DNA of 64,000 bases. It comes from Callorhinchus milii (lineage: Eukaryota). This document shows positions 9,510 to 64,000 of this stretch, piece after piece (position 1 is the first letter of the stretch; every line of letters begins with the position of its first letter). Below the pieces are notes generated by a model. It made no database searches. It had not been told where the DNA came from and saw only the letters and a list, made by a program, of their open reading frames with translations. The position numbers were made by a program, and so were the translations under genes. The DNA is taken from positions 123,692,001-123,756,000 of the forward strand of contig NW_024704742.1 in NCBI RefSeq assembly GCF_018977255.1. Direction: 5' to 3'.

Positions 9510-9600
9510 CAGCATCTCTCATGTAATGGATTTCATCAAAGACAACCCAGGCTACTTCCCTCATAACCTCTGATCCTCTGTACAGCATACTTCTCAAAAT
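9510..9600 (-). CDS. MTREX: MTREX exon 7 (DEIH box)
   Basis: [30 protein letters not shown]. Confidence 0.97.
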
Positions 9601-12060: not shown

Positions 12061-12123
12061 CTTTGCTGCTTTTCCTATGCGAGGTTTTAGCTGTCGATAT
12101 TCATCACCCTTTGGAAGCACCAC
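12061..12123 (-). CDS. MTREX: MTREX exon 4
   Basis: VVLPKGDEYRQLKPRIGKAAK; AG/GT. Confidence 0.93.
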
Positions 12124-12172
12124 CTGAAAATTTAGAGGAAGACGTCAATCACAATTAGTCACTTGTCAAAGA

Positions 12173-12760
12173 ACAACAACAACAAAATTACATTTGTATA
12201 GCACCTTTCACGTCGGGAGGACAACCCAAGGTGCTGGACAGACAGAATAATGGATCCGAGCTGGGGGTCGGGGAGAGTGAAGGGCAGGGGGAAAGCAGGG
12301 AGATTGAAAACCCGGTCGAAGAGGAGGGTCTTGAGATGGGTCGTGAAGGTGGTGAGGGAGGGGCAAGGCGGAGGAACTGCAGGATGGAGTTCCAGAGGGT
12401 GAGGGCAGAGTGGCGGAAGGCCTGCCTGCCAATAGTGGGGCGAGAGACGCGGGGGACATGAAGCAGGCTGGAGCCCGCTGAGCGGAGGGGGTGAGCAGGA
12501 TCGTAGGGGGTTAGGAGGTCGCAGAGGTAGGGGGGAGCAAGACTGTGGAGGGTTTTGAAGGTGAGGATCAGGATCTTGAACTGTATCCTCTGTATGATGG
12601 GAAGCCAGTGGAGTTGGGCAAGGATGGGGGTGATAGGGTCACGGAGCCTGGTGCGGGAGAGCACACGGGCTGCAGAGTTCTGAATGATCTGCGGCCTGTG
12701 GAGGGAGGAGTTGGAGAGGCCGACAAGCAATGAATTTGCATAGTCGAGCCTCGATGTAAT
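12173..12760 (-). mobile_element. L2 LINE 3' fragment
   Basis: [22 protein letters not shown], stem-loop tail and (TTG)n end. Confidence 0.92.
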
Positions 12761-12925
12761 GACAGAACACTGAGAGGAAACTCTTAGGCTTGTGAAAATT
12801 ATGTTATTATCGTAAAGGTGACCACATGGCAATCCATAACCCTGCAACATTTACATACATTGTAGAATAAACATGAAAAATACAATCAAGCAAAAGCTTT
12901 TAATCATTAGAAAAAAAAATCTTAC

Positions 12926-12992
12926 CTCATGGTTACAGCCCTCTACAGTTTCAATTAGCTCCACTTTCACCTTTGGCATCAAGTCTGCAAGA
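12926..12992 (-). CDS. MTREX: MTREX exon 3
   Basis: LADLMPKVKVELIETVEGCNHE; AG/GTAAG. Confidence 0.93.
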
Positions 12993-13481
12993 CTAAATAT
13001 TAATCAGCAATATTTAGCTATACTTTAACCGATATATTGTAATGAAACACCATAATATGAAGAGAGTCACAGTTGAATCAATTCAAGCCTTATGTCAAGG
13101 ATAATGACAAAACTAACTTGACAACCTTGAATACGAATTTGCTATCAATATTCAAGGTAGCCCAAGCCTTTAACTACGAATACATTTTTATGGTGGCTTT
13201 CACGTCGGGAGGACGTCCCAAGGCGCTGAATCCCAATAATACCCTCTGACTATCAAGTCATATAATTGGTTACTCTATCAAAATGTTTACAATAGGTTTA
13301 CAGTGGCCTAGTGAGAATAGTCATTGCTATATTTTTAATTTTAAAGTAATTAATCTTCCAATATTAATTTTGTGATCTAAATAAATGCAAACTTGGATAT
13401 TACATGTTCAATGAAACAGCAAATGCTATTATATATAGTGGTTATGAAAAATGATTAAAGTATAAAAAACGTTATAATTAC

Positions 13482-13622
13482 TTAATTTCTTCCATGGAGA
13501 TGACCTCAAGTTTGGGCTTTTTCCCAAACAAGACATCTTCTGAACCATCAGCCTCCAGGTCACGTTTGTTCTTGGCAGAGGAGACGGCATTTGCTCCTCG
13601 AGCCAATCCATCGTTGGTCTTT
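13482..13622 (-). CDS. MTREX: MTREX exon 2
   Basis: KTNDG...KNKRDLEADGSEDVLFGKKPKLEVISMEEI; AG/GT boundaries, phase consistent. Confidence 0.92.
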
Positions 13623-14500
13623 CTACAAAGCACCACAAAGCAAATTAGGACCATTTTCAAAACAAATCTTGATTTGTTTCAAACACAAATTGTTATGAAG
13701 TTATATACTTTCCCGCTTCCCTTGGCACAGCTACAAATGAAATCAATATCTGACAATTGTTGAATGAGTTTTCATTATCATGCATCAAAAAGAAATCCAA
13801 AAATTGACGAGAGAATTGGGTCAAGTGCAAATACCTTGAGTTTTCAGATTACAAATTGTAAACTCAGACAGCAAAACTGTTGCTGTTTGTTGGGTTTTAC
13901 AGTATTAGATTGTCTAAATTAAAACAGTACAACCCTGTTATAACTCAATAGTTGGGATCATAAAATCCAACTCATTTTATAACAGGGCTCAATCATCAGT
14001 CATCACTTTACATTCACTCTGCATGTGCACAGAGAGCCAACTGGCTTCCTACTTGCTAAAGAATGGCCAACTTCTGGCTCATCAGGTCACTGTAACACCT
14101 TCTGTAACTTTCTTATGAAATCCATCTACCTTACTCCCTCCTTCTCCACTTTCAAAGACAATCTAAAGACTTCCCTCTTTTACAAACAAACAAAAATACA
14201 TTTGTTTAGCGCCTTTCACGTTGGGAGGACATCCCAAGGTGCTGGACAATCAGTGTTTCGGACCTGAGCTAGGGTTTTACTATGCGTTTTGTCAACATCC
14301 CATCTACAAACTGCTCCAGCCTTCTTCCACGTCAGATTCCCAGTTTATTTTGAGATGATCTCCCTAAGTAAAAGATGCTGTATATAAAAATGGATATTGT
14401 TGTTCATTTTTGGCCAGGACTCTAGATCTCCATTCCCTTTTTCCAACAGTGTCATGAGATAATAATAAAAATCCTTGCATTTTGATACACAGGACATTTT

Positions 14501-14803
14501 GGAGTCCTGTAGCTCAGTGGTTAGAGCACTCGCTTTGCAAGCGAGACACCTGGGTTCAATTCCAGGCAGGACGAAACCTTGGGCAAGTTTCCTTACTCCA
14601 CACACCTAATAATAAAAAAANCAATAATAAATTGGTCATTTTCAATCCACGACTGTTTGTGGGACACTATTGTATGCAATTGACTGCCGTGTTTCACCCA
14701 CAAATATACGGTCAATTCACTTTAGAATCTACTCTGTGAAGCGCTTTGAGACGTTGAGAAGGCGTGAAAAGTGCTATATCAAATGCAAGGATTATTATTA
14801 TTA
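14501..14803 (+). mobile_element. tRNA(Ala)-derived SINE, full length
   Basis: GGAGTCCTGTAGCTCAGTGG A box, GGTTCAATTCC B box, CTCGC-TTTGCAA-GCGAG anticodon arm, (ATT)n tail. Confidence 0.92.
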
Positions 14804-14804
14804 T

Positions 14805-15122
14805 ACCACCTTACCATGTCGTTGAGACGTCTCAAAGCACTTCACACAACATCCTATAAGTGGATTGACTGTATTTTGTGGCCGAAATGTGGCAGCCAGT
14901 TGCACACAGTCGTCGTGTATTGAATGATCAAATTATTTATATTTTTTTAAAGGATTATTACCCCAGAAAGTGATCGGCCAATCGGATTCCTACTTACTGC
15001 TGGGTAAACAGAGGTGTGTGGAGTACGGATACTTGCCCAACGTTTCGCCCTACCGGGAGTTGAACCCAGGTCCTCTCGCTTGCGAGGCGAGTGCTCTAAC
15101 CAATGTGCCACAGATACTCCAC
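14805..15122 (-). mobile_element. tRNA-derived SINE, tail-to-tail with the previous copy
   Basis: Reverse complement of SINE head and body. Confidence 0.85.
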
Positions 15123-15239
15123 CACAGGGATGTTTTAACATCCATCTGAGAACAGGCAGACTGGCCTCTTGAAGGCTGGCAGCGCGGGCAACGCAGCACA
15201 CACACAGCACTGGCGTTTCAGGTAGACCATGACCTTAAA

Positions 15240-15675
15240 AACAACAAGATTCCATTTATTGAGCGCCTTTCACGTTGGGAGGACGTCCCAAGGCGCTGCG
15301 CAGTTTGGTCAGGACCCGAGCAGGGGGAAATGGTCAGGGTGAGGGGAGGGAAGGGAGGGAGTGAGGAGGGGGTAGAGTAGAGAGAGGAGCTGAAGGCACG
15401 GTCAAAGAGAAAGGTCTTGAGACCGGCCTTGAAGGAGGAAAGGGAGGAGGCGGCAAAGGCACTGGAGGATAGAGTTCCAGAGCCTGGGGGCTGAGAGGCT
15501 GAAGGCCCGGCCACCGATGTTAGGGCGGGGGATGTGGAGCAGACCGGAGCCAGAGGAACGGAGGGTATGGGCAGGTAGGTAGGGGGATAGTAGGTCAGAG
15601 AGGTAGGAGGGAGCGAGGCCGTGAATGGCCTTGTAGGTGAGGATGAGGATCTTGAATTCGATCCTCTGGGGGATT
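15240..15675 (-). mobile_element. L2 LINE 3' fragment
   Basis: FKAGLKTFLFDRAF and L2 tail. Confidence 0.88.
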
Positions 15676-15928
15676 GATATTGCTCTTGAACTTACAACCT
15701 TTTGACCCGGTCAAGAATCTCAGGCTGAAATAAAATATTTTAAGCATTTCATCAGATTATGATATCCGTTAGTATTTCCACAAACAGGAGTCCACTCAGA
15801 TTGTTGCGTTATTGGTTAACTATCAGTGACAAATCAGTTTGTAAGTCAACTGTTTTCTACAGTCAGCATTATCACCTGTAGTCACATTATTTTCGGGGAT
15901 ACTTATGGAAGCAGATTCATGTTTACTT

Positions 15929-16693
15929 GTCTGTGTGTGTGTGTCTGACTATGTTTGTGTGTGTGTGTCTGACTATGTGTGTGTGTGTCTGACTACGTTT
16001 GTGTGTGTCTGACTGTGTGTGTGTGTGTCTGACTGTGTGTGTGTGTCTGACTGTGTGTGTGTGTCTGACTGTGTGTGTGTCTGACTATGTGTGTGTGTGT
16101 CTGACTGTGTGTCTGACTGTGTGTGTGTCTGACTGTGTGTGTGTGTCTGACTGTGTGTGTGTGTGTCTGACTGTGTGTGTGTGTGTCTGACTGTGTGTGT
16201 GTGTGTCTGACTGTGTATCTGACTATGTGTGTGTGTGTCTGACTCTGTGTGTGTCTGACTGTGTGTGTGTGTGTGTGTGTGTCTGACTGTGTGTGTGTGT
16301 CTGACTGTGTGTGTGTGTGTGTCTGACTGTGTGTGTGTGTGTGTGTGTGTGTGTCTGACTGTGTGTGTGTGTGTGTGTGTCTGACTATGTTTGTGTGTGT
16401 GTGTGTCTGATTGTGTGTGTGTCTGACTATGTTTGTGTGTGTGTGTGTGTGTGTCTGACTGTGTGTGTGTGTGTCTGACTATGTCTGTGTGTGTGTCTGA
16501 CTATGTTTGTGTGTGTGTGTGTGTCTGACTATGTTTGTGTGTGTGTGTGTCTGACTATGTGTGTGTGTGTGTCTGACTATGTGTGTGTGTGTGTGTGTGT
16601 CTGACTATGTGTGTGTGTGTGTCTGACTGTCTGTGTGTGTCTGACTATGTTTGTCTGTGTGTGTGTGTGTCTGACTATGTCTGTGTGTGTGTG
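15929..16693. repeat. Compound (GT)n-CTGACT microsatellite array in MTREX intron 1
   Basis: About 760 bp of GT runs punctuated by ctgact(a). Confidence 0.97.
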
Positions 16694-16694
16694 T

Positions 16695-18250
16695 ACCGGT
16701 GCACGTGTTACCCGCTCGCGTGTACCTCCACCATAATAATACGGTCACTCAACCCACGACTGTTTGCGGGACACCGCCGTGTGTGCAATCGGCTGCCGCG
16801 TTTCGCCCACAAACCGCGCAGCAGTCACTTCGCTTCGCGGTATACCCCGCGAGGCGCTCTGAGACGCCGCCGAGAAGACGCGATAAAAGGACCATCGCAG
16901 CCAGAAGCCCGCGCGGCGCAGCTCACAGAGGCAAACGGCGGCCACGTGAACGCTCTGTCCAGCCTCCGGGGGGGGGGGAAGCCTCGGCCTTGGAAGCCTC
17001 GAAACAATCACAGGCGGTAAAAAAAAAGGGGCCCCCGGGGACAGCCCGTCCTCTGAGCCCCGCGCCTGAGAGCAGAGTCAGGCGGCGGCGCGGCACAAGC
17101 TCACAGGCCGCTCCGCGATCGGGGGGGGACCCGGGCCTGGCCCAGGCACCCGCGGCTCGTCCTTCCCCTCACCCGTGTTTCCCGCCGCCGCCTCCTCCTC
17201 CTCCTGCTTCTCCTTTCCCTTTTTTCGCCGATTCCTCCTCGAACACACTGAACAGGTCCTCGCCGAACGCGTCCGCCATCTTGGCCCGGAGCGCGCCACC
17301 CACCGCGCTCCCACAATGCAGCGGGGGCGCGCGACCCACGGCGGCCGCAGAGGGACAAACGCCGCGTCGGTCGCGTCGGTCGGTTCTCGCAACCGAGCGT
17401 CAATAAAAGCAGAGACCGCTCAGCGGGTCAGGGCAGCACCTCACGCAGTTGAACTAAAAATCGCCTTTGTAGCCCAAAGTCCACCAAGCGATAGCCCCCC
17501 CAAAAAACAGCCCAATATTTTGATTTCAGGTTGCAATGCAGATTGGTGTTTTCGACGGGTGTGGAAGCGAAGGTCTTCAGAGGAGCGGAGGAACGTTTCG
17601 CGGATTTAAGTTTAAAATTGAAGGCAGTCGAAAAAAATAATAAAGTTTTCGCCCACAAATACGCGGTCGGAATTCACTTTCGGGGGTGTGTTCTGTGAAG
17701 CGCTTCGAGACGTCTCGTACAACAACAACAACAACAACAAGATTCCATTTACAGAGCGCCTTTCACGTCGGGAGGACGTCCCGAGGCGCTGGACAGTTGG
17801 GTCGGGACCCGAGCATTGGGGGGGAAATGGTCAGGGGAGGGGAGGGGAGGGAGGGAGGGAGGAGGGGGTAGAGAGTCGAGAGGGGAGCTGAAGGCTCGGT
17901 GATAAGGCTCCCGATCAAATGCAAGGATTGTTGTTATTATTTTTCACGCGCGCAGCGCAACAGAGACCCGCGAACTTGCCCAAATCTGGCAACAACGGGC
18001 TCCGGCTCCAGCTCCAATGGTCGACGCCAAGAGCCTCACCACTTTTGTGGCGGAGGGGGTGGCGTTCTGTCTGCCTCACGCCAACCCATCGCCGCGCGTA
18101 ACATTTTCCAAACCAGAATGAGAGTTCCGTTGCATCCCACCAATCCATGGGAATAACCTTGCGCCCGGAAGGGAACGCTCGCTCTTCACAGAGGGAAGCA
18201 TCCTGCTCACATAATTGCGGAGAGTATTAGGCGCAGGTTGGCAAGAGCCA
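16695..18250. promoter_or_regulatory. CpG island / MTREX promoter
   Basis: Abrupt GC- and CpG-rich block spanning MTREX exon 1 in an otherwise CpG-poor window. Confidence 0.85.
17173..17279 (-). CDS. MTREX: MTREX (SKIV2L2/MTR4) exosome RNA helicase, coding exon 1
   Basis: ATG at 17279; MADAFGEDLFSVFEEESAKKGKGEAGGGGGGGGKH resembles the MTR4 N-terminus (MADAFGDELFSVFE); GTGAG donor; inside CpG island. Confidence 0.95.
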
Positions 18251-21359: not shown

Positions 21360-23690
21360 AACAACAACAGCAACAACACGATTACAGTTGTATAGCACCT
21401 TTCACGTCGGGAGGACATCCCAAGGCACTGGACAGTGTACAGCATTTCAGACCCGAGCTGGGGTCAGGGGGGGAAAAGGGAGGGGAAGGGGGGGTGACCG
21501 ATGGCATGGTTGAAGAGGAGGGTTTTGAGGTGGGAATTGAAGGAGGCTAAGGAGGGGGTGAGGCAGAGTGATTGGGGGATGGAATTCCAGAGGTTGGGGG
21601 CATAGTGGCTGAAGGCTCTCCCACCAATAGTGGGGCGGGTGGGTTGGGGGACGTGGAGCAGGCCAGAGCCGGCTGAGTGGAGGGTGCGGGAGAGTTGGTA
21701 GGGGATTAGGAGGTCACAAAGGTTGGGTGGAGCGAGGCCTTGGAGGGCTTTGTAGGTGAGGACCAGGATCTTGAACTGGATATTCTGAAGGATAGGGAGC
21801 CAATGGAGTCGGGCGAGAATGGGGGGAGATGGGGTCACGGAGTTTGGTGCGGGAGAGGACATGGGCTGCAGAGTTTTGGATTAACTGCAGCCTGTGGAGG
21901 GAGGAGTTGGGAAGGCCGACAAGCAGGACATTTGCATAGTCGAGCCTGGAAGTGATGAAGGCATGAACAAGAGTTTCAGTGGCCTGAGGGGTGAGGTAGT
22001 GGCGGAGTCGGGCGATGTTACGGAGGTGAGGGAAGGCAGAGTGGGTCATGGCTTGGATGTGGGTAAGAAAAGACTGTTGAGGGTCAAACAAGACACCGAG
22101 GTTCCTGACTGACTTGGTGAGTTGTAGTGTGCAGCCATGGAGGTTGATGCTGCCAGAGCCTGAGGTGCTGAGGCGCTGGCGTGAGCCAATCAGGAGGGCC
22201 TCAGTCTTGTTCACATTCAACTGTAGGAAATTTGCCCTCATCCAGGACTTGATGTCCGACAGGCAGTCTGTCAGGACAGCAGTGGTCCTGGAGTTGAGGG
22301 TGGAAGCAGAAAGATAGAGTTGGGTGTCATCTGCATACATATGGAAGTTGACCCCATGTCTGCGGATGATGTCACCAAGGGGGAGCTTGTAGATATTAAA
22401 GAGGAGAGGGCCAAGGACAGAGCCCTGGGGAATGGCAGATGTGACAGTGCGGGGACTGGAGGAGAAACCATTAGAGGCAACAAAGTGAGAGATAAGATTC
22501 GATCCAGGCAAGGGCAGGTCCACAAAGGTTAAGTAAAGAGGAGAGGTGGTGTATGAGGATGGAGTGGTCAACAGTGTCAAAGGTGGCAGAGAGGTCGAGA
22601 AGGACAAGGAGGCAGAGGGAGCTCTGATCATAGATGTTCAGAATGTCATCAGTGACTTTGACCAGGGCTGTTTCCATGCTGTGGGCAGCGCGGAAGCCGG
22701 ATTGGAGGGGTTCGAAGAGGAAATGTCAAGAAAGGAGTGGAGCTGGGACGCCACGACTCATTCCAGGACCTTTGAGAGTAATCGGAGGTTAGAGATGGGG
22801 CGGTAGCTGGAGAGGAGGAATGGATCCAGGGAAGGTTTTTTCAGGATATTAGTGATGATGACTGTTTTAAGGTGGGTGGGAACTGAACCAGTGGATAAGG
22901 AGAAGTTGATGATGTCGGACAGGAGAGGGGTCAGAAGGTGGAGCTGGAAGATGAGGAGAGAGGTGGGGATGGGATAGGAGCAGGTGGTGGGTTTGAGTTT
23001 GTGAACAATGTTGATTTGGGATTTGAGGAAGTCCAGCATATACTCACAGTTGGAGTTTGAGGAGAGGATGGGTGAGGCGTGGGAAGGTGGACGGAGGAGA
23101 TGGTTTGTGGTGGAAAAGAGAAGCCTGGGGTTGTCCTTTGCCTCCAAGATAACGTTGGAGCAGAAAGAGGATTTGGCAAAGGCAAGAGCGCTGCATTAGG
23201 TCTTGGTATGGTGAAGCCAAATCTGCCGATGGACCGTTAGTTTGGATTTGGTCCAGGCACGTTCAGCAGCTTGCACTTGTGCCTTGAGGGAACGGAGATG
23301 GCTGGTGTATCAGAGGGAAATTACGGGAGTATGAGGCAGTTCGGGAAGTGAGGGGGGGCAAGGGAGTCTAGAGGGAGGAGAGTGAGTTGTGAAGAAAAAA
23401 GAGCAAGGAGGATAGATCGGTCACTGAGGGCCAGAGGTGTAGGAGTTTGGATGACTCCAGGGCAGTGGAGAGGGAGAGGGAGGAAATTGTTTTCCACAGA
23501 TTGTATGTGATGGTAGAGAGTTGAGAAGGGGGAAGGGGTACGGAGGTGTCAAGGGAGATTAAGTGGTAGTCCAAAATGGCTTTGTCGTTGATGGTGATGT
23601 CCAAGACGGTGAGGCCCCAGGTGATCACCAGCTCAAGGGGATGGCCACTGCCAGTTGTTCCACTGCTCAAGTGATTGCTTTCACTCCAGT
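21360..23690 (-). mobile_element. Longest L2 LINE copy (endonuclease remnant, RT, 3' tail), degraded
   Basis: GHPLELVI...DYHLI endonuclease remnant; [43 protein letters not shown]; multiple frameshifts. Confidence 0.93.
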
Positions 23691-26330: not shown

Positions 26331-26650
26331 GCCGTGAGATTTTAAACGTTTATATTTATAAAATAGCTGTTTATATTTGTTTATATTTGTTGCTCAGTTT
26401 GTGAAAGGATTAATACCACAGCACAATGAACATTCCACCCGCGTGAATCATGTTGGTTCTCAGAATTGTATCAGCAAACAAGTTTATAATTTCCAGAAGC
26501 TGGATCTTTAATCTGTAAACAATCTGACCTATTGTTAAAGCGCTGTTTAGTTGTCACTCCACCCATCTCGTTTGGAAGATTATCTTTCTGAAAGATCTGT
26601 AACTGGGTGACCACAGCAGTTGCTTGTTTACTTGCAAGTCAATTGGGGAA

Positions 26651-26845
26651 CTAAGTGAACCTAAGTGAACTGGATGGACGTGACGGGGAAACACCCTAGA
26701 AAAAAAACACATCACACTCACAGGGTGAACAACACACATGTTAGAGACCTCAGTGATGAATCGAAAGCTAAGTGGTTTCAGTTTCGATATCCAAACAGAG
26801 CATCGATCAGTTGGGCTGCTTTAAATAGACTGAACCGAAACAAAC
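26651..26845 (+). promoter_or_regulatory. Putative interferon-responsive promoter of the HELZ2-like gene
   Basis: GGTTTCAGTTTC ISRE-like at 26774-26785, GAATCGAAAG at 26758, tandem CTAAGTGAAC x2 at 26651-26670, TTTAAATA TATA-like at 26820, GAACCGAAAC at 26832. Confidence 0.65.
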
Positions 26846-26849
26846 ACCA

Positions 26850-26938
26850 GTTACTGTTGGGAGCTGCAGCTCTCACCATCAATGTGATGCAAAGGCAAGA
26901 GAAGGTGGATATCTCAACAGACAGCCTCAGAAGAAGTA
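26850..26938 (+). other. Putative first exon of the HELZ2-like gene (coding status uncertain, 5' end approximate)
   Basis: Downstream of TATA/ISRE; ATG at 26887 (MQRQEKVDISTDSLRRS); strong GTAAGT donor at 26939; homologous segment at 61563-61610. Confidence 0.5.
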
Positions 26939-27825
26939 GTAAGTGCAATAACTTATAACTTATAAATGATCTCTGTATATGATTGATGTTACCATCATCG
27001 TCTGTGCTCTTTTGCAATGTTATTCCCAATTGATTAATTCGCCACTTTTATTTCAAAATCAATTGAAACTGTACTTCGAAAAAGGCTATAAGATCTCTCT
27101 CCGGAGGTGAGAATTGGTTGCTGGCTATCAGTGTCCATCAGATCTTTTTAAATGAGATTTTTTTCTGAACGACTGGCTACACTCTGGATGTTACATTTAC
27201 TGCAATGGATGAACCACAAACGTAGTTCATGCCTCGTAAAATAGATAGCAGTTAAAGATAAACAAGGTGACTGATGTCCCACACTTGCACTATGGTAAGA
27301 AGATGGTTATGTGAACAGAAGCCAAATCCAACTGAGATAACTCACCAAATGTATCCATTTCATGTGAGTTTGGGACATTTTAGAATCGTAACACAAATAC
27401 AGTTAAAATCATTTAATTGAAGGAAGGGTCAATAATGAGTGAGAAATTCGTGAAGCCACCAGCTTTTAAAAAGATTCCTTCCTTACTCCACATACCTGTT
27501 TACCTAGCAGTAATTAGGAACCTGCTTGTTAGTTGATTGGTGGATCGCTTTTCCAGGGGTAATAATTCCTTCAAAAAAAATTGATCACTTAAATGCCAAC
27601 TGTTTGTGGGACACTGCTTTGTGGAATTGGCTGCTGCGTTTCTCCCACAAAATATACAGTTGATTCACTTTACAGTATTTTCTGTGAAGCACTTTGATAC
27701 ATTGCAATGATGTGATAAACTACTACATCACATGCAAGGATGATTATTATAATACAATGTGCTCTCAATAGCATTGATTCAATTATAACAAGGTTATAGT
27801 GTGCCCCCCATTCACTGCACATGTG

Positions 27826-27965
27826 CACAGCCAGCGCACAGCCCGCGCACAGCCAGTCCACAGCCAACCCAGCACAAGCTCACAGGCAGCCCAGCGCAAG
27901 CTCACAGGCAGCCCACACCCATCTCACACGCAGCTCACAGCCAGCTCACAGGCAGCTCATAGCTG
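27826..27965. repeat. Degenerate ~11-bp minisatellite (CAGCTCACAGG-like)
   Basis: Repeated cacagcc/cagctcacagg units. Confidence 0.8.
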
Positions 27966-28019
27966 GTGCAGAGCTGGTGGGGAACCGTAGCATCTTGTTT
28001 GACTACCCCAACTGCCTTT

Positions 28020-28630
28020 AAAACCCCCCATCCATGCTCTGCTCAGCTTTCCCTCACCTCTCAAACCTTTCCTGCCTCTGCCACTTTCTCTCTCCTACGC
28101 TAACTCACTGCTCACTGGGCCCCCCCCAGCTATTCCCTATCCAGGCTGCAGACTATCCAGGACTCTGTAGCACATATCCTCTCCTGCTGTAGATTCATGA
28201 GTCTGTCACCCCCATCCTTGCTCAGCTCCATTGGCTCCCCATTCCCGAGTGGATTCATTTCAAAAACCTTGTTCTCACATTCAAATTCCTCCATGGTCTC
28301 ACCCTATCTCTGTGTCCTCCTTCACCGTACTGATCCAGCTGCTCATTTAACTTAGAGAATACTGGGCTGCTTCATGTCCGCTTCCCTAAATGCCCCACGA
28401 TTGGTGGGCTGACTTTCACCCAGTGTGCCCTTGCTATGGAACTCCATCCCAGAGTACTTTGACTGTCTCTCTCCCTAACCTTGTAATAAGCCAGTCTCTA
28501 AACATATCTCTTTAACCATGCTTTTGATCATCTCTCCCCTCCCACAATGCTTGGCTCCCATTCCCACAACAGTATCAAGTACTTTGAGGTATTTTCCCAA
28601 CATGAAATGTGCTTTATAAATGTAAATTGT
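28020..28630 (+). mobile_element. Old L2 3' fragment
   Basis: ctccattggctccccatt (LHWLPI) remnant and tail. Confidence 0.75.
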
Positions 28631-28914
28631 ATTGGACTGTATTGCTTATATGTTGATTTGTATTTCTGATTATATTCCAGCTGTGATATCCAATTTACAC
28701 TATGTCCCAGCACAATGGGATCCATCCAGATTCCAAACATTCCTATGCATCTGTTGCTGTAAGTACATTGCTGCTGCGAAGTTTCTACGCCTCACTGCAT
28801 TTGCTCATTTAGGTTTTTGCAGAAAGTAGTTGGAAAGAAAAGGATTTCCTTAACTTGCAACAGGTCTTCTGTTGGAAATATTGTAGGACACTCCAACATT
28901 GTCCAAATACATTA

Positions 28915-29655
28915 GAATATACAGCACAGAAACAGGCCATTCGGCCCAATTAGTTTATGCTCCACATAAGCTTCCTCCTGCCCTTTCTCAATTAAGCCTT
29001 CAAGCATTACCTTCTATTCCTTTCTCCCTCATGTACCTATCTAGTTTCTCCTTAAATACATCTATGCTATTTGCCTCAACAACTTCTTATGGTAGCATGT
29101 TCCCCATTCTCACTCCTCTCTTTGTGAAGAAATGTCTTCTAACTTACCTATTGATTTATTTGTGACTATTTTATATTGATGGCCCTTGATTCTGGTCTCC
29201 CCCACAAGTGGAAACATCTTCCCTATGTCTACCCTATCAAAACCTTTCATCATTTTAAAGACCTCTATCAGGTCACCCCTTACCCTTCGTTTTTCAAGAG
29301 AAAAGTGTTCAATTATGTTCAGCCTTTCCTGATAGGTATAACCTCTCAGTTCTGGGATCATCCTTGTGAAACTCCTTTGCACCTTCTCCAGTGCCTCTAA
29401 ATCCCTTCTATAATGTGGGGACCAGAACTACACACAGTATTCTAAGTGTGGTCTAACCGAGGTTCTAAAGAAGTTTACCATAACTTCCCTGCTTTTTATT
29501 TCTACCCCCCTAGAAATGAACCCCAATGCCTGGTTTGGTTTTTTATGGCCTCATTAACCCGCGTTGCGACTTTTAGTGAATTGTGTATGTATACCTACCC
29601 CTAGGTCCCTTTGCTCCTCTACCCCAGTTAGGTTTTTATTTTCCAGGGTGTGTGT
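28915..29655 (-). mobile_element. CR1 LINE 3' fragment
   Basis: FTRMIPELRGYTYQERL...SLEKRRVRGDLIEVFKMMKGFDRVD, a CR1 ORF2 C-terminal motif. Confidence 0.9.
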
Positions 29656-30215
29656 GACGTATGTATGTATAAAGTTTGTAAAGCAAGCTTCTCCTAAGTC
29701 TTTGAAACAAAACTAATTATATAAAAATAATCCTAACATTTGATACAATACTTTTCATGTCAGGAGAAGTTTGTAACTATAGGTTGTAATCTAGTATCCA
29801 GTCTCATATAAAGTTTCCAAGAAGGAAGCTGAAAGAGATCTAAGGCTGTTGATTGAGCTGTTAGATTTATTGTCTAACAATATTATTAATTTATAAATAA
29901 ATCTAATATTAATAATAATGGTTATTATTGTCATAAAATTATTGTCTGAACAATCCACAAAAGGTACTTGTGGCATACAGTAGGTTACCCATCAAAACTA
30001 ATCTAAATTAATGAACATAAAGAGAACTTATTGTCAGAAGCTGCAGCAATAGACTGTTGCTTGTTTAAATAGCTTCTAATTTTNAAACAGTTCAGTTAAC
30101 AACATTATAATATAATTATTATAACATTATTTACATGTGGGAAATTGTGCATGATTTTAAACAAAAAAGTATTGGTTTGGTTGCATGTATTAACAAGATT
30201 TCCATTGTTTAACAG

Positions 30216-31189
30216 AGAAAAGGTGTGGATAACAGCAATGCATGCATTGTATATTTGGATGAGCTGAATTCTTTACGCTGTCAACTAGATCTTACCCTTG
30301 GCTGCTTCCAATGCTTCCAAAGAAAAAACAGTAGCTTGTACCACAGAGTACTGAATGACTGCCATGAATGTGCAGAAGATTTTCTCCTAGCCAAGGAGAA
30401 ACGCACGAACAATGTATGGAAAAATATTAGAGTGTGTCCACCATTTCCTTTTGTGTTTGTTGTCTGTAAATCTTCTCGAAATGGAGCACCTTGCAAGCTT
30501 CGCAATTGCACATTCGCCTCCTGCAAAGAAGAAGAAATTGTATGGAACTTTGAAAGTGAGCATAATCTTTCTCGAGCACAAATTAAGTCTTTCATTAAAA
30601 AGGTTCCCTATCAGGAACTGACAGCAGCTGATAAATTTTTATTAGAATTTGGTGGTAAATTTCAATTCCTTTGCCATACCTGCTGTTTGCAAGATCCTCC
30701 TACATTCAGCACAAAATCTCAAAATCAGGAAGTCTGCACTAACCAGCAGAAGCATGAGTGGCATCCTTTACTTGTGCACAAGGTGATTGAAAGCAATGAT
30801 GAAAACGGCATTCAATATCAGCCGATCAGAGAATTTACAGAGTACAACGACCGAGGCCTGTGTAGAAATTCAGACGCATGTCAGCAGACAGCTACAAATT
30901 GCAAATGGTCACATTCTATTGTAGAGCTTTCGTTTTGGTCTGAGGCACAGCGCCATGCCCGTTTTGATAAAAGCCTTGTTGAAAGGTCAGAGCAAAAGTA
31001 CAGCAACTATATCGCTCCACTGACAGGGTTTCATTGCAAGCTCTGTTTAGTGAAATGCACATCTCAGGAGGAGTTTCGACAGCATTGTGCCAGCTTGAGT
31101 CATGATACAAAACTGCATTCTCAAATCAATGAGAACTGGAGATTTAAGGACCCCCCAGAAAATGAAGATGCCTTGAACCTATGCCCTTG
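30216..31189 (+). CDS. HELZ2: HELZ2-like exon A (N-terminal zinc fingers)
   Basis: LDLTLGCFQC, CTFASCKEEEIVWNFE, EFGGKFQFLC, CKLCLVKCTSQEEFRQHCASLSH resemble the HELZ2 N-terminus; CAG acceptor, GTGAGT donor. Confidence 0.88.
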
Positions 31190-32469: not shown

Positions 32470-32571
32470 CTGAATGAAACTGTAGAGGATGCCAGTGTAC
32501 ATTGTACTGAAGAGTTGGAAATATGTACAGAAAAGAGCCGACAACATGAGTGGAAATTCGAAGTAATATCG
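32470..32571 (+). CDS. HELZ2: HELZ2-like exon C
   Basis: LNETVEDASVHCTEELEICTEKSRQHEWKFEVIS; AG/GT. Confidence 0.85.
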
Positions 32572-37622: not shown

Positions 37623-38123
37623 GTTAGTTACTTTTCTTTTAGGTGTATGTTAAAACTTAGATCTCATAAATTCACTGTATGATGTACTGAAAATCTAGAT
37701 AAGTACACACAATTACAAAACAATACAAACTTACAAACAATAGATTTCATCTTGAACTCAGGTGGAATTTCTCTGCCTAAATTGCTTATTTGGGTTTCTT
37801 ATTAGCAAATTCAAGTTACACAAATGGGGACCACCTCATAAGTCCCGGATGTATACCTGGAAGGTAAAGTTAGATCTAGACAGAAGGGAGTAGAAGGGCA
37901 TGGAAGGGAGAAATGAGTGAGTGCAGGCTCATATGAAGTATAAACACCATCATCACAGAATGGCTGGGCCAAATGGCCTGTTTCCGTGCTGTACAATCTA
38001 TGCAAATCTTTGTAAAAGCATCTTATTAAAGATTAAATACTAGTATTGGCATATAGAGGTATTTTTCAATGCTAACCACAGTAGAATACATTAGGATATT
38101 TTCTTGTAATTCCTGCACTAATT

Positions 38124-38445
38124 GGAGTCCTGTAGCTCAGTGTTTAGAGCACTTGCCTCACAAGCGAGAGATCTGGGTTCGATTCCCAGCAGGGCAAAAC
38201 TTTGGGCAAGTTTCCTTATTCCACATGCCTTATAATAATCCCTCAAGAAAAAAAACCACAATAATAAATTGGTCACTTCAATCCATGACTGTCTGTGGAA
38301 CATTGCTGTGTGCAATTGGCTGTCGCGTTTAGCCCACAAAATATACAGTCAATTCACTTTACAATATATTCTGTGAAGCGCTTTGAAACGTCCAGAAGAC
38401 GTGAAAAATGCTATATCAAATGCAAGGATTAGTATTACTATTATT
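38124..38445 (+). mobile_element. tRNA-derived SINE, full length
   Basis: Head, body and tail present. Confidence 0.92.
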
Positions 38446-38527
38446 AATAATACCAGTTCTTAACTGGTTTGATGACAAAGTCAAAACAATATGCTTTTTA
38501 CCATAGATTCTTTTTGGTTATTTTTAG

Positions 38528-52559: not shown

Positions 52560-52663
52560 GTAACAATAATTTACTGAAATGCCATCCTCGGTGGAGAAGA
52601 CTTCTGCAACATTATGAAGGGAAGAATTGTGTCTGGAATGCTGAAAATTATTCACCAGTTTAA
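52560..52663 (+). CDS. HELZ2: HELZ2-like last coding exon
   Basis: GNNNLLKCHPRWRRLLQHYEGKNCVWNAENYSPV-stop (TAA 52661-52663), followed by AT-rich 3' UTR-like sequence. Confidence 0.92.
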
Positions 52664-56222: not shown

Positions 56223-57642
56223 GCTACCGCTCAGAGATGTTATCCTATGTGAAGGGTGCTGTATAAATGTAACTTGTTGTTATGCAATTGTGCGCAATTG
56301 TTTCGCCTACAAAATATACAGTCGATTCACTTTATATTCTGTGAAGCGCTTTGAGACCTCTCAAAGACGTGATAGGGTGCTATATCAAATGCAAGGCTTA
56401 TTATTATTGTTGTTATTATATTATTGTATAAGGTTAAAGGACACAACACAGGGGTAAGGCTTCAAAAGTGGTTGTGAAATGTAGCTTGAGTATAGCTTGC
56501 ACAGAAAATAGCTCAACTGATTTCGCAATATAGCCTGTTTGTCCTGTTATCCTGTACGTTCTTGCATTGCTATTTATTACTGATTCTTGTTTCACAAGGG
56601 TGTGAAAAGGAAACAAATTAAGTTACATCACTGCCAGGATGCAATGTGAGACTCACCACCCAAAGCTATGGTTGAAGCAAATAGTTTAAACAGGTGATTT
56701 CAGCATTCTTGAGGGCACTATACAATACAAATTGTTGTTGTGTAGATGCATTTAAAAGAATGCATTGACGAAGAAGGGAATAGAATGATATAGGAGGGAA
56801 TAAGGAGTGGGTGGAGACTCATGTGGAATATAAACACCGGAAATGGCACAGGTTGGGCCAAATGACCTGTTTCATTGCTGTAGAGTTTATGTAAATCTAC
56901 ATATATCTAAATTGTATATCCACTTTCTCTCTTTTTAGCTTGAACCTATGTCCCCTTGTTCTAGAATTTGTGACCATTATCGAGAGTTGCATTATGCTGG
57001 AATTTAGATGGGGTATTGTAGAATATGAATTGCACTTATCATCCATCATTATGGATATAAAGTACATCTGTACTGCTCTTTTGCTGCATACAGTTGTCGT
57101 TTGGGTCCTTCTGAAAGTTTCACACCCTCCACTCCACCATCGGTGGCCGTGCCTTCAGCCACTATGCCCCGAAGCTCTGGAATTCTCTCGCTCAACCCCC
57201 GCCTTGCCCTCTCCCTCCTCACTTTTAAATCCCGCCTAAAGACCTTCCTTTTTGATCGTGCTTATGGTCACCTCCCCCCTTCCTCTCTCCCTGGCTTGGG
57301 GTCAGACTCTAACACTGTCAAGCTCTCCGGGACGCTACCCTGTGTGAAGGGCGCTATACAAATGCAAGTTGTTGTTAATAATAATCCTTGCATTTGATAT
57401 AGCGTTTTTCACGTCGGGAGGACGTCCCAAAGCGCTTCACAGAACACACTGTAAAGTGAATTGACTGTATATTTGTGGGCGAACGCGGCAGCCAATTGCG
57501 CACAGCAATGTCCCACAAACAGTCGTAGATTGAAAATGACCAATTTATTATTGTTTTTGGTTTTGGAGGGATTATTATTAGACGTGTGGAGTAAGGAAAC
57601 TTGCCCAAGGTTTTGCCCTCTGCCTGGAATTGAACTCAGGTC
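56223..57642 (+). repeat. Copy 1 of ~1.42 kb direct duplication
   Basis: Identical to 58103-59522 (offset 1880) apart from about 4 substitutions seen. Confidence 0.95.
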
Positions 57643-58102
57643 AATAGTCAGGAACAAGAACCCTGGCTGATTTTATTTCCCTAACTTGATTTTGCTGTAA
57701 CCAATTTTAAATCTGTCCGATCTTCATTCCACTGTACCTTGCTATTAATTAACAAGTCATTCCAGGAAATTGAAACTGGTGGTACTAGCCTGTATCACTT
57801 AGTATCAATGCCACAGCACCTTTGCTCAGGGAACCATAAGGCAATTATAGTATTGACAGCTTCAAAGCGTACTAATTTCATGCAGCGAATGGCAGACTCA
57901 AAAGCACCAAAATGAACTGGAAGATTTGGGAGGGAAATCCGTTCTAGGTCGACTTTAATTTCCTTCTGTTTAAAGAAATACTCCCTGGTGTCTATCCTGT
58001 CTATCTTTAATGTGTTTAGTGTCTTTCCTGTCTATCCTTTACAACTTTGAACTGTGACCTCTTGTTTTGCCATTTTGTCCTATCTGAAAGTAAGTACAAG
58101 AT

Positions 58103-59522
58103 GCTACCGCTCAGAGATGTTATCCTATGTGAAGGGTGCTGTATAAATGTAACTTGTTGTTATGCAATTGTGCGCAATTGTTTCGCCTACAAAATATACA
58201 GTCGATTCACTTTATATTCTGTGAAGCGCTTTGAGACCTCTCAAAGACGTGATAGGGTGCTATATCAAATGCAAGGCTTATTATTATTGTTGTTATTATA
58301 TTATTGTATAAGGTTAAAGGACACAACACAGGGGTAAGGCTTCAAAAGTGGTTGTGAAATGTAGCTTGAGTATAGCTTGCACAGAAAATAGCTCAACTGA
58401 TTTCGCAATATAGCCTGTTTGTCCTGTTATCCTGTACGTTCTTGCATTGCTATTTATTACTGATTCTTGTTTCACAAGGGTGTGAAAAGGAAACAAATTA
58501 AGTTACATCACTGCCAGGATGCAATGTGAGACTCACCACCCAAAGCTATGGTTGAAGCAAATAGTTTAAACAGGTGATTTCAGCATTCTTGAGGGCACTA
58601 TACAATACAAATTGTTGTTGTGTAGATGCATTTAAAAGAATGCAATGACGAAGAAGGGAATAGAATGATATAGGAGGGAATAAGGAGTGGGTGGAGACTC
58701 ATGTGGAATATAAACACCGGAAAAGGCACAGGTTGGGCCAAATGACCTGTTTCATTGCTGTAGAGTTTATGTAAATCTACATATATCTAAATTGTATATC
58801 CACTTTCTCTCTTTTTAGCTTGAACCTATGTCCCCTTGTTCTAGAATTTGTGACCATTATCGAGAGTTGCATTATGCTAGAATTTAGATGGGGTATTGTA
58901 GAATATGAATTGCACTTATCATCCATCATTATGGATATAAAGTACATCTGTACTGCTCTTTTGCTGCATACAGTTGTCGTTTGGGTCCTTCTGAAAGTTT
59001 CACACCCTCCACTCCACCATCGGTGGCCGTGCCTTCAGCCACTATGCCCCGAAGCTCTGGAATTCTCTCGCTCAACCCCCGCCTTGCCCTCTCCCTCCTC
59101 ACTTTTAAATCCCGCCTAAAGACCTTCCTTTTTGATCGTGCTTATGGTCACCTCCCCCCTTCCTCTCTCCCTGGCTTGGGGTCAGACTCTAACACTGTCA
59201 AGCTCTCCGGGACGCTACCCTGTGTGAAGGGCGCTATACAAATGCAAGTTGTTGTTAATAATAATCCTTGCATTTGATATAGCGTTTTTCACGTCGGGAG
59301 GACGTCCCAAAGCGCTTCACAGAACACACTGTAAAGTGAATTGACTGTATATTTGTGGGCGAACGCGGCAGCCAATTGCGCACAGCAATGTCCCACAAAC
59401 AGTCGTAGATTGAAAATGACCAATTTATTATTGTTTTTGGTTTTGGAGGGATTATTATTAGACGTGTGGAGTAAGGAAACTTGCCCAAGGTTTCGCCCTC
59501 TGCCTGGAATTGAACTCAGGTC
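58103..59522 (+). repeat. Copy 2 of ~1.42 kb direct duplication
   Basis: See copy 1; here the terminal SINE continues intact to 59568. Confidence 0.95.
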
Positions 59523-60692
59523 TCTCACTTGCAAAGCGAGTGCTCTAACCACTGAGCTACAGGACTCCACAAGCAATTGTTAAAAGCAATTCAAACCCAT
59601 TCACCATTGGATAACATTCCTTCTTCCAAAAATGTTGACAAGATTTTCTGCCAAGTACCACCATTGTTTATCAAGTGCTTAGAGACTAAAATCAAATTGA
59701 GACGACAAAGTACTTCAGTTCTACTATACAATATCTGTGAATCTGATATATAACAAAACACAAGTCCAGAGATAGTAGGACTGGAATACTTTTAAGATGC
59801 CGTGAAGGACATGATATATTCTCAGTTTTCCTTCAAAACTAATAACCATTTTTTATTACATAAAGCTCAGCTAGTTCCGCCCTTCTACACGTCGCTTGTC
59901 TCTTCCACTTTATTGACAGCTGTGCTTTCAGTCACTAATCCCCCAAACTCTGGAATTCCCTGCCTCAATCCCTCCTCCTTGTCCCCTCTTTGCCTGTCTT
60001 CAGATTGCACCTGAAGATCTTCCTCTTCCTCTGCCCCCTACACACACTTTCTCCTCAGCTCAGAATCAAACTCCCCCGTTTTTGAGCACTCCAAGGCACG
60101 GATGTCGCTTTATGAATTGTATTGTTGTATATGGAAGGAGTCAATTTATTTTCGGCTCCCAATCCGACATGTGTATTCACATTATTTAAGACTAAATTTT
60201 ACAAGTAAGTGCCAAGTGATAAAACTTTCACAAACTTCCGCTAAAATTTCCACTAACTGGTAAAATTTAAAGTGAATGTTTCCACTAAGTGGTAAAACTC
60301 CAAATCGTAAAATTTTCACAAAGTTCCACTTTCTATGTGTTACCGCGTATGAAAAGCCTTAGCAGCATTCTATGATTTATACATTCTGCCCAGCCATGAG
60401 AGATTGAGGCAATCACCCAATTAATTACTTAGCAACTGGCAAAATAATGACATCATTTACTTGCCACAGCACACAATTATAAAAACAATAATATAAATAG
60501 AGTCTTTCAGAGGCATTTCACATAACTGACTCCAAGTGCTTCACACAATGACTGAGAGCCTGGGAGGGGACTTGCGTAGGGAGGGGAAAGGTGTCCATAA
60601 GCATGGACAATGAGATAGATTTTAAGGCTATCTTGTTGTTGATTGAAGCTTGAAAGGGAGGGTTTCAGATGTACAGTGAGACAAGGCTATGT

Positions 60693-61010
60693 GGAGTCCT
60701 GTAGCTCAGTAGTTAGAGCACTCGCTTTGCAAGTGAGTGACCTGAGTTCAATTCCAGGTCAGGGCGAAACCTTGGGCAAGTTTCCTTACTCCACACGTTT
60801 AATAATAATCCCTCCAAAAAAAACAATAATAAATTGGTCATTTTCAATCCATGACTGTTTGTGGGACACTGCTGTGCGCAATTGGATGCCGCGTTTGCCC
60901 ACAAATATACAGTCAATTCACTTTACAGTATATTCTGTGAAGCGCTTTGGGACGTCTAGAAGACATGAAAGACGCTATATCAAATGCAAGGGTTATTATT
61001 ATTATTATTA
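60693..61010 (+). mobile_element. tRNA-derived SINE, full length
   Basis: Head, body, (ATT)n tail. Confidence 0.93.
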
Positions 61011-61399
61011 TGAGGGGATTTGAATGTGGAAACCAAATAGAGGCAGCATGGGAGGATGGTTGGTTGGTGATGGAGAAGAGGAACCTGGGTTGCTTTGCCT
61101 TCCGAATTGATCATAAAGGAAAACTCATCATAACAAAAAACACATTAAAGTGCATTCAGAGAGCTATGTCAGGAATTTTGTTTTCCAATCTGGTTTGGGA
61201 GATGAACTTCTGAAAGATTGCAACTGGGCTCTTCAAATCTTCAATGCGAGATGCACTACAGGTTAATGAACACCCAGGGAAGGAAGCGACACGTCAACCT
61301 TTCTGGTGTGTCTCTACAACTACAGTAAACATCCTCGTTAAGGGAAGCGCAGCAAACGAAGAGAGAGAATGGGAATGAACCGAATACAACGAGTTAAAT

Positions 61400-61610
61400 G
61401 GGTTTCGCTGTCAAATCGAAAGTTACATGATGGTTTCGATTTTGAAACCAAAGGGCGTGAATCAGCTGGAGGTGCTTTAAATAGACAGCGCTATAACAGT
61501 ATCAACACAAACTGGGCGGCTCCTCTCTCCTCTCCTCTCTCCTCTCTCCAGATTTATTCATCATGAACTCAAGGACGACCATCTCAAAAGACAGCGTCGA
61601 GAAGTTAAAG
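61400..61610 (+). promoter_or_regulatory. Paralogous ISRE promoter plus putative first coding exon (ATG 61563-61610, MNSRTTISKDSVEKLK)
   Basis: Shares AATCGAAAG.TA, TGGTTTC, ATCAG.TGG...TGCTTTAAATAGAC and ATCTCAA.AGACAGC.TC with 26758-26935; GT donor at 61611. Confidence 0.55.
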
Positions 61611-62209
61611 GTACATATTACCCGGTGTCCTGACCATCTGTAGTCTGTTCCCTTTAATATCACTGCAAAATGACCAGCAACTTTTATTTTTTGTTTTACA
61701 AAGTTAATTCAGCCTGTGAACTGCGAATCGGGAAGTAAAAACTAAAATATAAATAACAGGGTCGTGTGTTAACCTTTGCCTTACAATCCTTACAGTGGCT
61801 GATGCATAACAGTAAGTAATAGCATTAAAGTTGCGTTGTTCATAGTAATTATTATTATTATTATTATTATAACCTGGGTTTGTCTCAATGGGATGTTTTT
61901 GATCTGTTGGTTACAACTCGATGCTGCATTTTCTGATGTTTGAGCTGTGGCTGAGAGTATTATATAAAATAAACAAAGGTAAAGACACACCATAAACAAC
62001 GTGACGTTTGACATCCAGAAAAAAAAAGCTCACAATGTAAGGAAATGATTACCAAAGAGAAGCAAAATCCACCTTACTGCACTCAGTCCAAATGTAATAA
62101 TATTAATCCTGGCAAATATATATTGTAAAGACTGTGCATTTTATGAACAGTGAATCAAACAAATAAACATTATTGGTATTAATATTATTTTTGGACTGCG
62201 ATAATGCAT

Positions 62210-64000
62210 AGATTTGTGACGAATCTAGTTGAATTTTTTTTGAGGAGGTCACTCACATGATAATAAGAGTGTGTCTATGGATGTTGTCTATATGGACTTT
62301 CAGAAGGCATTTGATAAGGTTCCGCACAAGACGTTATTAGCAAAAATGAAAGCGCCATGGAATCAGAAGTAATCTTGTTTCAGGGCTTGGGAATTGGTTG
62401 GAGGCAGGAAACAGAGAGTAGGGATAAAGGGAACGTTCTTTGATTGTCAGGATGTGACAAGTCCCTTGCAACGTCCTCCCGATGTGAAAGGCTCTATACA
62501 AATGTCATTTTGTATTGTTTCTGTATTGTAAGTGATGCTCCCAGGGGATGTGTCCTGGAACCTCAACTTTTCACGATATGTATATAAATGGCCTGAATGA
62601 AGAAATAGAGAGTTGTATGTCCAAATTTGCAGCTACCATGAAGTTAGGAGACACAATAAATTGTGTAGATGGGAGCAGAAAGTTACAAAGGGCCAGACAG
62701 ATTAAGTGAGTGGGTAAAACTGTGGCAGATGGAGTTCATGTGTGGAAGTTTAAGGTCATCCACTATGGATCCAAGAAAGTCAAATTGGAATATTTTCTTA
62801 ACGGTGAGAAACTAAGAACTGTGCAGGCTCAAAGGGATTTGGGAATCCACGCACACAACCATTAAAAACTAGATCACAAATACAAAAAGTAATCAAAAGA
62901 CCAATGGGATGTTGGCCTTGACCTCGGGGGGGGGGGGGGGCTGGAATACAACAACAACAAGATTACATTTGTATAGCGCCTTTCACATCGGGAGGACGTC
63001 CCAAGGCGCTGGACAGTGTACAGCATTTCAGACCCGAGCTGGGGTCAGGGGGGGAGAAGGAAGGGGAGGGGAAGGGGGGTGGCTGATGGCATGGTCGAAG
63101 AGGAGGGTTTTGAGGCAGGACTTGAAGGAGGATAAGGAGGGGGCGAGGTGGAGTGATTGGGGGATAGAATTCCAGAGGTTGGGGGCAGAGTGGCTGAAGG
63201 CTCTCCCGCCAATAGTGCCAATAGTGGGGCGGGTGGGTTGGGGGACGTGGAGCAGGCCAGAGCCGGCTGGGCAGAGGGAACGGGTGGGTTGGTAGGGGGT
63301 TAGGAGGTCGCAGATGTAGGGTGGTGCGAGGGCATGTAGAACTTTGAAGGTGAGGACCAGGATTTTGAACTGGATCTTCTGAAGGATAGGGAGCCAATGG
63401 AGTCGGGCGAGAATGGGGGAGATGGGGTCATGGAGTTTGGTTCAGGAGAGGACACGGGCTGCAGAGTTCTGGATTATCTGCAGCCTGTGGAGGGAGGAGT
63501 TGGGAAAGAGGACAAGCAGGGAGTTTGCATAGTTGAGCCTGGAAATGATGAAGGCAATAAGCAAGAATTTCAGCAGGGTGAGGTAGTGGCAGTCAGGTGA
63601 TGTTACGGAGGTGAGGAAAGGCAGAGCAGATCATGGCTTGGATGTGGGGAAGCAAAGACAGTTGAGGGTCGAACAAGACACCTAGGTTCCTCACTGGCTT
63701 GGTGAGTTGAAGTATGCAACCATGCAGGTACAAAGGTGTGGAAAAGATACTTCAGTTATACAGAGTCTTGGTCAGACCCCATCTGGAGTACTGCGTTCGG
63801 ATTTGGGCACCGTTTCTCAGTAAAGCTATGTTGGCACTGGAAGGGGGTATAGCGCAGATTCACCAAATGATACCAGAGCTTAAAGGCTTAAATTATGAGG
63901 CCAGGTCGCATAAACTTGGTTTGTATTCCCTTGAATTTAGAAGGTTGAGGGGTGATCTAATTGAGGTGTTTAAAATAATAGAGATTTTATAGGGTAACTA
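62210..64000 (+). mobile_element. Degraded CR1 LINE (RT to C-terminus) interrupted by L2 insertions
   Basis: MDVVYMDFQKAFDKVPHK; LQLYRVLVRPHLEYC; SLEFRRLRGDLIEVFKII. Confidence 0.88.
62948..63728 (-). mobile_element. 5'-truncated L2 (~780 bp) nested in CR1
   Basis: Reverse complement of the 50735-51500-like copy; TACAA on both flanks. Confidence 0.92.

Follow-up and report, generated by a model that had tools for sequence, protein, structure and literature searches.

A duplicated promoter and first exon behind a HELZ2-like gene of Callorhinchus milii, with a candidate helicase-degenerate paralog

What does a second copy of a promoter and first exon do when it stands behind a gene that is already complete? 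The question is raised by a 64-kb stretch of DNA from Callorhinchus milii (elephant shark), hereafter the window, in which an element at 61.5 kb (copy 2) resembles the promoter of an upstream HELZ2-like gene (gene 1; its promoter is copy 1). Our main reading, to which we give a probability of roughly 0.55, is that copy 2 belongs to a tandem partial duplicate, which would encode an IRF-responsive, helicase-dead 3′-5′ exoribonuclease. The following features are used below.

26562-27080, plus strand: copy 1, the gene-1 promoter together with the presumed exon 1 (alignment, motif scans)
26820-26827, plus strand: TATA-like element of copy 1 (motif scan)
30216-52663, plus strand: coding exons of gene 1, full HELZ2 architecture (XP_007890431.1, 2784 aa; stop codon at 52661-52663)
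61185-61727, plus strand: copy 2, duplicated promoter, first exon and start of intron 1 (alignment, colinear with 26562-27080)
61185-61228, plus strand: upstream block kept in copy 2 (83% identity to 26562-26607)
61414-61423, plus strand: IRF half-site with AA flank (AANNGAAA), kept together with 26759 of copy 1
61431-61450, no strand: TGGTTTC-n6-GAAACCA, comprising a minus-strand IRF half-site (61432-61441) and a plus-strand GAAA core (61444)
61476-61483, plus strand: TATA-like TTTAAATA, within 14 bp that the two copies share without a difference
61505-61610, plus strand: exon 1 of copy 2 (its 5′ end placed by way of the TATA-like element, its 3′ end observed in run X1)
about 61514-61551: CT microsatellite inside this exon
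61563-61610, plus strand: 16-codon, phase-0 frame beginning with an ATG (A at -3); the spliced partner extends it without a stop by at least 10 codons
61611-61616, plus strand: splice donor AAG/GTACAT, used in X1; its 9-mer is identical to the gene-1 donor at 34067

Gene 1 spans 26.9-52.7 kb, and its long exons were 99.7-100% identical to XP_007890431.1. It encodes OB_HELZ2 and RNB between two Upf1-like helicases, all catalytic motifs being intact, and follows the order of HELZ2, namely zinc-finger-aligning N-terminal region, Upf1-like helicase 1, OB_HELZ2, RNB, and helicase 2. This full domain order is shared with vertebrate HELZ2 (PRIC285/PDIP1), described as interferon-induced in PMC10516660 and PMC9839780. 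Exon A of gene 1 (acceptor at 30216) matched HELZ2 N-termini with E values of 1e-24 to 1e-34, over the whole exon in four of six queries, and matched no Pfam family. Since gene 1 is complete, with its stop codon at 52661-52663, its coding exons do not include the one at 61.5 kb. On its left, the minus strand of about 1-17700 holds an MTR4/MTREX RNA helicase gene, head to head with gene 1 and containing a CpG island (16500-17700, CpG o/e 1.05); to our knowledge, human HELZ2 is not adjacent to MTREX.

The start of gene 1 is itself problematic. Exon A requires phase 0 and contains no Met. In copy 1, the ATG at 26882 is directly followed by TGA, and the ATG at 26887 combined with the donor at 26939 gives phase 1 and a stop after 22 codons; no in-frame ATG was present along the best-scoring splice path (26882-26944, 30216-30232). 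An alternative in-frame donor at 26905 scored 4.6 bits versus 6.1 (matrix built on 17 gene-1 donors), an alternative in-frame acceptor at 30223 scored poorly (-7.2 versus 11.2), and the interval 26939-30216 yielded no convincing additional exon. A GTG at 30225 stands in a strong context (G at -3 and +4), and human HELZ2 initiates at a GUG in a comparably strong context (PMC10516660). The problem could reflect a frameshift, a one-base assembly error, use of the weaker donor at 26905, or non-AUG initiation. Among existing models, RefSeq uses a three-codon exon at 29665 and the UniProt fragment lacks a Met. An exon of the UniProt model A0A4W3JYX0 (38137-38193) lies inside a SINE copy (38123-38446) and is probably mis-annotated.

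An alignment of the two promoter regions confirmed the homology proposed in the initial annotation and extended it beyond the limits given there, to 61185-61727 against 26562-27080. The Smith-Waterman score was 114, and the background maximum in the same sequence was 45 for one set of 412 other windows and 49 for another of 437; the core of the alignment scored 75, versus a mean of 23 and a maximum of 43 in 1000 shuffles. Targeted BLASTN of copy 2 against copy 1 recovered the blocks at E values of about 1e-5 to 1e-7. Identity between the copies exceeded all 300 shuffles in the upstream part (123 of 193 aligned bases), the IRF/TATA core (56/72), the ATG-to-donor part (39/49), and the intron-start part (73/99); the 5′ UTR (34/45) was not beyond shuffles. 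Each of the six long shared blocks reported earlier was found once, at the expected sites (61414/26759, 61461/26806, 61581/26911), and the TGGTTTC common to both copies (61431 and 26773) accounts for two of its 12 occurrences on both strands of the window. The duplication of promoter and first exon is real.

For the region 61030-62230, aligned runs X1, X2, X5, and X9 were examined; their contigs carry no library records, and X1, X2, and X5 are putative RNA. All 30 bins were covered by X9 at a flat depth of about 9, with a single contig over 61036-61834. Because this coverage is continuous and flat, X9 is DNA-like and copy 2 is not an assembly error. That the similarity between the copies arose by chance, from a dispersed repeat or from an assembly artefact has a negligible probability. 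Such an origin would agree with the failure of the pair to be listed by whole-window self-BLAST (E 0.01) or by masked comparison, and the copy count spans the 64-kb window. The absence from self-BLAST points instead to an old, diverged match, and the score of 114 lies far above the background maximum. A dispersed repeat is ruled out in the window by the presence of two copies only, without a third copy of the promoter block where SINEs and LINEs recur many times, and by the single-level depth of X9, which rose to hundreds at the repeat adjoining copy 2. The divergence between the copies also speaks against a collapsed or doubled contig.

The canonical ISRE is the tandem GAAANNGAAA, and its GAAA half-sites are bound by single IRF molecules (PMC6954429). 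The earlier suggestion that copy 2 kept an ISRE was not borne out. The full GAAANNGAAA was present in copy 1 only (26774-26785, minus strand; half-site at 26759), and neither strict nor looser patterns detected a full ISRE in copy 2 at 61.1-61.7 kb. Copy 2 retains IRF half-sites at 61414 (plus) and 61432 (minus) and further GAAA cores at 61403 and 61444, with no tandem pair. The palindrome TGGTTTC-n6-GAAACCA, present at 61431-61450 as had been described, stands where copy 1 has its full ISRE. As a special signal it was rejected, since the window has 124 such perfect inverted repeats of 7 bp (spacer 0-10) and copy 1 lacks this one. The window contained 84 AANNGAAA sites, of which only three pairs lay 30 bp or less apart, and two of these pairs are the promoters of copy 1 and copy 2. 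IRF half-sites near a TATA box were thus kept in both copies, where we take TTTAAATA to be the TATA element of copy 2 from its likeness to the consensus.

The strict ISRE pattern matched at 26774 and 57766 only in the window. The latter match (57766-57777) lies 3.6 kb upstream of copy 2 and is at chance level (1.05 expected); it could be a distal element. CpG o/e was 0.78 at copy 2 (61200-61800), higher than at copy 1 (0.46) and over the window (0.42), which may reflect lower germ-line methylation at copy 2. According to PMC3688568, zebrafish IFIT copies that lack a typical ISRE showed no induction, and interferon induction of copy 2 is uncertain for that reason. Direct IRF activation would be a likelier mode for copy 2 than interferon induction.

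A 509-nt contig of X1 (depth 26) aligned on 61572-61610 only and departed at the predicted AAG/GT donor, which demonstrates that the copy 2 exon is transcribed and spliced; the pattern at the donor also supports the putative assignment of X1 as an RNA run. As the contig starts 3′ of the ATG, it is uninformative about the start site and the start codon. X2 and X5 yielded no contig on 61030-62230, which is no evidence of silence. The short ORF from the ATG at 61563 to the donor (61610/GT) was verified as 48 nt in phase 0, as was a splice donor in both copies (GTAAGT at 26939 in copy 1). Beyond the X1 joint, 30 nt remained open in the ATG frame (LHHPAGWASV). This partner had no match in the window at three mismatches (best ungapped, 20/30), and no frame of it scored above shuffles against gene 1, the paralog described below, or shark HELZ2. 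A homolog of the gene-1 exon at 32470 (32470-32499) was considered as the partner and rejected, with 4 of 10 residues in register, 14/30 at the DNA level, and 66% of shuffles doing as well. The initial annotation had used phase 0 to tie the copy 2 exon to a homolog of exon A; this tie fails, since the spliced partner resembles neither exon A nor any other gene-1 exon, and the phase match is therefore not evidence. The ATG at 61563 would be either a uORF or a true N-terminus. At 61602, X1 and X9 share an A-to-C allele that turns Lys into Gln at codon 14 of the exon, and two more variants were seen in X9 (61495 and 61722).

The same species has a paralog, XP_007890433.1 (1537 aa) / XP_042187754.1 (1590 aa), which is not encoded in the window and shares 72% identity with gene-1 residues 1189-2770. 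Its RefSeq accession and its EukProt index both come directly after those of gene 1. RefSeq accession order usually tracks genome order, and with MTR4 filling the left side, the paralog is probably located just beyond 64000; its presumed adjacency to copy 2 rests on this accession order. Models from three annotation sources have a common start Met at about gene-1 residue 1184, about 105 codons inside the homolog of the gene-1 large exon. The zinc-finger region and helicase 1 were absent in all five annotated members of the paralog cluster (protein models), and the exon-1 peptide of copy 2 is not at the annotated N-terminus. A search for exon A among proteins of 570-2000 aa found nothing; this result is weak, as known gene-1 fragments were also missed.

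Helicase 2 of the paralog is altered in five motifs: I, GPPGTGKT to APPGTGKN; II, DE to DD; IV, QYR to QYQ; V, SQG to SKG; and VI, TRA to TKA. The residues of motifs I, II, and IV were kept in 11 of 11 other rows, and those of V and VI in 10 of 11, the exception being one truncated row. Deviations from consensus occurred in 49 of 174 conserved helicase 2 columns in the paralog and 25 in gene 1. Over OB and RNB the two were similar (32 and 31 of 126 conserved columns, respectively). The RNB domain of the paralog contains the four catalytic aspartates and TSPIRRY, and its DDKGSKDIDD is the same as in gene 1. Structure matches were to 4ro1 and 9cy7 (cold-shock/OB and RNB) and, at the C-terminus, to 2xzo (Upf1-like fold). 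In human HELZ2, the DE motif is important (PMC10516660), and domains were inactivated through DE-to-AA and E-to-A mutants (PMC10516660, PMC9839780). Helicase 2 of the paralog is degenerate and predicted to be inactive. The tandem helicase-exoribonuclease gene expected from the first reading of this DNA was found in part: a close HELZ2-like paralog with the next accession exists, but without helicase 1 and with a degenerate helicase 2.

Identity between paralog and gene 1 was uneven. It reached 99% over residues 1481-1690 and 2054-2141 and fell to 62% over helicase 2; in the two former blocks, six control pairs showed 47-89% and 46-81% identity. The longest identical run was 136 aa, versus 14-39 aa in the six control pairs. 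The 99%-identity blocks would fit gene conversion, and as predicted proteins were compared, they could also be assembly cross-talk.

These data would be accommodated by the following mechanism. A HELZ2-like gene and its promoter would have been copied together by local duplication, so that the copy would have its working promoter and exon 1 at 61.2-61.7 kb and its body, XP_042187754.1 (1590 aa), beyond 64000. The zinc-finger and helicase-1 exons would have been lost from the copy, with exon 1 then spliced to a different second exon, and helicase 2 would have lost its ATPase residues, the RNB nuclease core being held near-identical to gene 1 via gene conversion. After viral sensing, the half-sites, which lie upstream of the TATA-like box, would be occupied by IRF proteins. 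The product would be an ATP-independent 3′-5′ exoribonuclease acting on single-stranded RNA, and the dead helicase fold may be retained as an RNA-binding or scaffold module. According to PMC10516660, human HELZ2 needs ATP and active helicases to pass through duplex RNA and digests single-stranded RNA without them; the paralog is therefore predicted to act on single-stranded RNA like RNase II/DIS3L2. Helicase 2 was more important than the RNB domain for LINE-1 restriction by human HELZ2 (PMC9839780), and a helicase-dead copy may accordingly lack that function, which speaks against a strong antiviral role.

The weak step is the link from promoter to paralog, which we infer: copy 2 probably drives the shortened paralog, yet the 30-nt partner matches no window, gene-1, or paralog sequence, and no sequence therefore connects the two. 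The same mismatch would be explained if the copy 2 promoter now drove a non-coding or unrelated transcript and the paralog used another start. The annotated paralog N-terminus, which differs from the exon-1 peptide, agrees with such a transcript, as does the acceptor of the gene-1 large exon; it is in phase 1, so that a phase-0 exon 1 cannot directly join the homolog of that exon in frame. We consider this alternative unlikely, since a promoter copy right behind gene 1 and a next-accession orphan paralog are most simply the products of one duplication. It is quite improbable that copy 2 begins a second HELZ2-like gene of full length, with an N-terminal half missed by annotation. Exon 1 has the phase 0 that exon A needs and stays open for 10 codons into its partner, the annotation of both C. 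milii genes is fragmentary, and the exon-A search covered proteins of 570-2000 aa, above the 179-569 aa range. Nevertheless, the partner is unlike exon A, even though non-coding parts of the copies match at 64-78% of aligned bases, the same internal Met start recurs in the three annotation sources, and helicase 2 is degenerate irrespective of the N-terminus.

A further alternative accepts that copy 2 drives the paralog and regards the paralog as a decaying, functionless partial duplicate, with an RNB domain derived from conversion or assembly cross-talk. Decay would agree with the missing N-terminal half, the five altered helicase motifs, and the lost full ISRE, and the RNB identity is tied to gene 1. 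We regard it as doubtful: a 1590-aa open frame is held in the model despite 62% identity in helicase 2, the half-sites, TATA-like box, and donor are the best-preserved parts of the promoter, and the copy 2 exon is spliced. If the promoter-paralog link fails, copy 2 is an ordinary duplicated promoter.

Returning to the partial duplicate of our main reading, the origin of the pair within the HELZ2 family was addressed by searches and trees. HMMER against 1.84 billion representatives gave two close matches among the 150 listed, both from C. milii, and the next at about 34%; relatives above 50% could hide behind representatives. Two word-based queries of the large exon region, which gave 29 and 26 matches, revealed no close relative in another species. 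Gene 1 and the paralog showed about 30-35% identity to shark HELZ2, and both were placed outside the clade of lamprey and all gnathostome HELZ2 in a FastTree analysis of 187 rows (a coverage filter kept 204 of 228 proteins, and 17 near-duplicates were then removed). A quick IQ-TREE mixture tree on 26 chosen rows and 1393 of 3142 columns, with the fastest columns removed, again placed them outside, and the AU test rejected a clade forced with sharks (p-AU 1.8e-48). Neither protein grouped with shark and ray HELZ2, with the caveat that the stem is long (0.78-0.97) and attraction of the pair to the root is therefore possible. The deep position suggests an unrecognised second vertebrate HELZ2 lineage. 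As for the lineage-specific antiviral expansion suggested previously, the specificity stood, with no close relative in the other species searched, and the expansion did not, as there are two genes.

A bolder extension, which we offer as speculation with little probability, is a two-tier antiviral RNA-decay pair in a second ancient vertebrate HELZ2 lineage, present in chimaeras and found in no other species searched. A full helicase-nuclease under a true ISRE would act on structured RNA after interferon, and a helicase-dead nuclease under IRF half-sites would act ATP-independently or as a decoy after direct IRF activation, with conversion keeping the nuclease cores identical; gene 1 may then start at the GUG at 30225, convergent with hominid HELZ2.

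Compared with known systems, the paralog retains the OB_HELZ2, RNB, and helicase-2 fold of HELZ2, without the first 1180 residues. Like the stand-alone 3′-5′ exoribonucleases DIS3L2 and RNase II-R, it combines cold-shock/OB and RNB without a working helicase, and by analogy it probably works like these enzymes; it differs from them in its HELZ2 descent, its C-terminal Upf1-like fold, and the IRF-type sites of copy 2. Vertebrate IFIT genes are tandem ISG duplicates with gained or lost ISREs; like the C. milii pair, they are lineage-specific and have proximal ISRE motifs that differ between copies (PMC3688568). Unlike IFIT, the C. milii pair comprises two genes, one of them a partial copy, and is a candidate for induction. 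HELZ2 has been described as an ancestral ISG (bioRxiv 10.1101/693333). No paper on chimaera HELZ2-like genes or on a helicase-dead HELZ2 paralog was found among titles and abstract starts, a search mostly outside subscription papers. Callorhinchus, sharks, and lampreys are not mentioned in the searchable text of the PMC10516660 supplement, apart from its alignment pictures.

A duplicated promoter is nothing unusual for tandem immune genes, and automated annotation already exists for both proteins. The RefSeq/UniProt 'helicase with zinc finger domain 2-like' models (XP_007890431.1 for gene 1; XP_007890433.1 and XP_042187754.1 for the candidate second gene) bear automated names, have no start in the duplicated first exon, and leave the dead helicase and the identity mosaic unremarked. 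New here are the putative helicase-dead, nuclease-intact copy, its possibly converted nuclease core, and the deep branch. In PMC10516660 and PMC9839780, the helicase and nuclease parts of HELZ2 have so far been separated only by engineered mutation. If our reading is true, an intact gene with a naturally helicase-dead copy next to it would provide a test of the nuclease acting alone, and the pair would test whether the response is divided between half-site and full-ISRE promoters, in the lineage in which the interferon system makes its first appearance.

Of ten ORFs located between the genes or in the flanks, nine had no credible Pfam family and one was a LINE reverse transcriptase. Rfam detected only tRNA-like SINE heads in 52.6-64 kb. 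tRNA-headed SINEs and LINE fragments were located in the flanks and in the first intron of copy 2 (59500-59562, 60695-60762, 21717-22637, 62945-63727). In addition, 56223-57642 and 58103-59522 form a 1420-bp direct duplication with four mismatches and a period of 1880, which is either a recent duplication or an assembly artefact.
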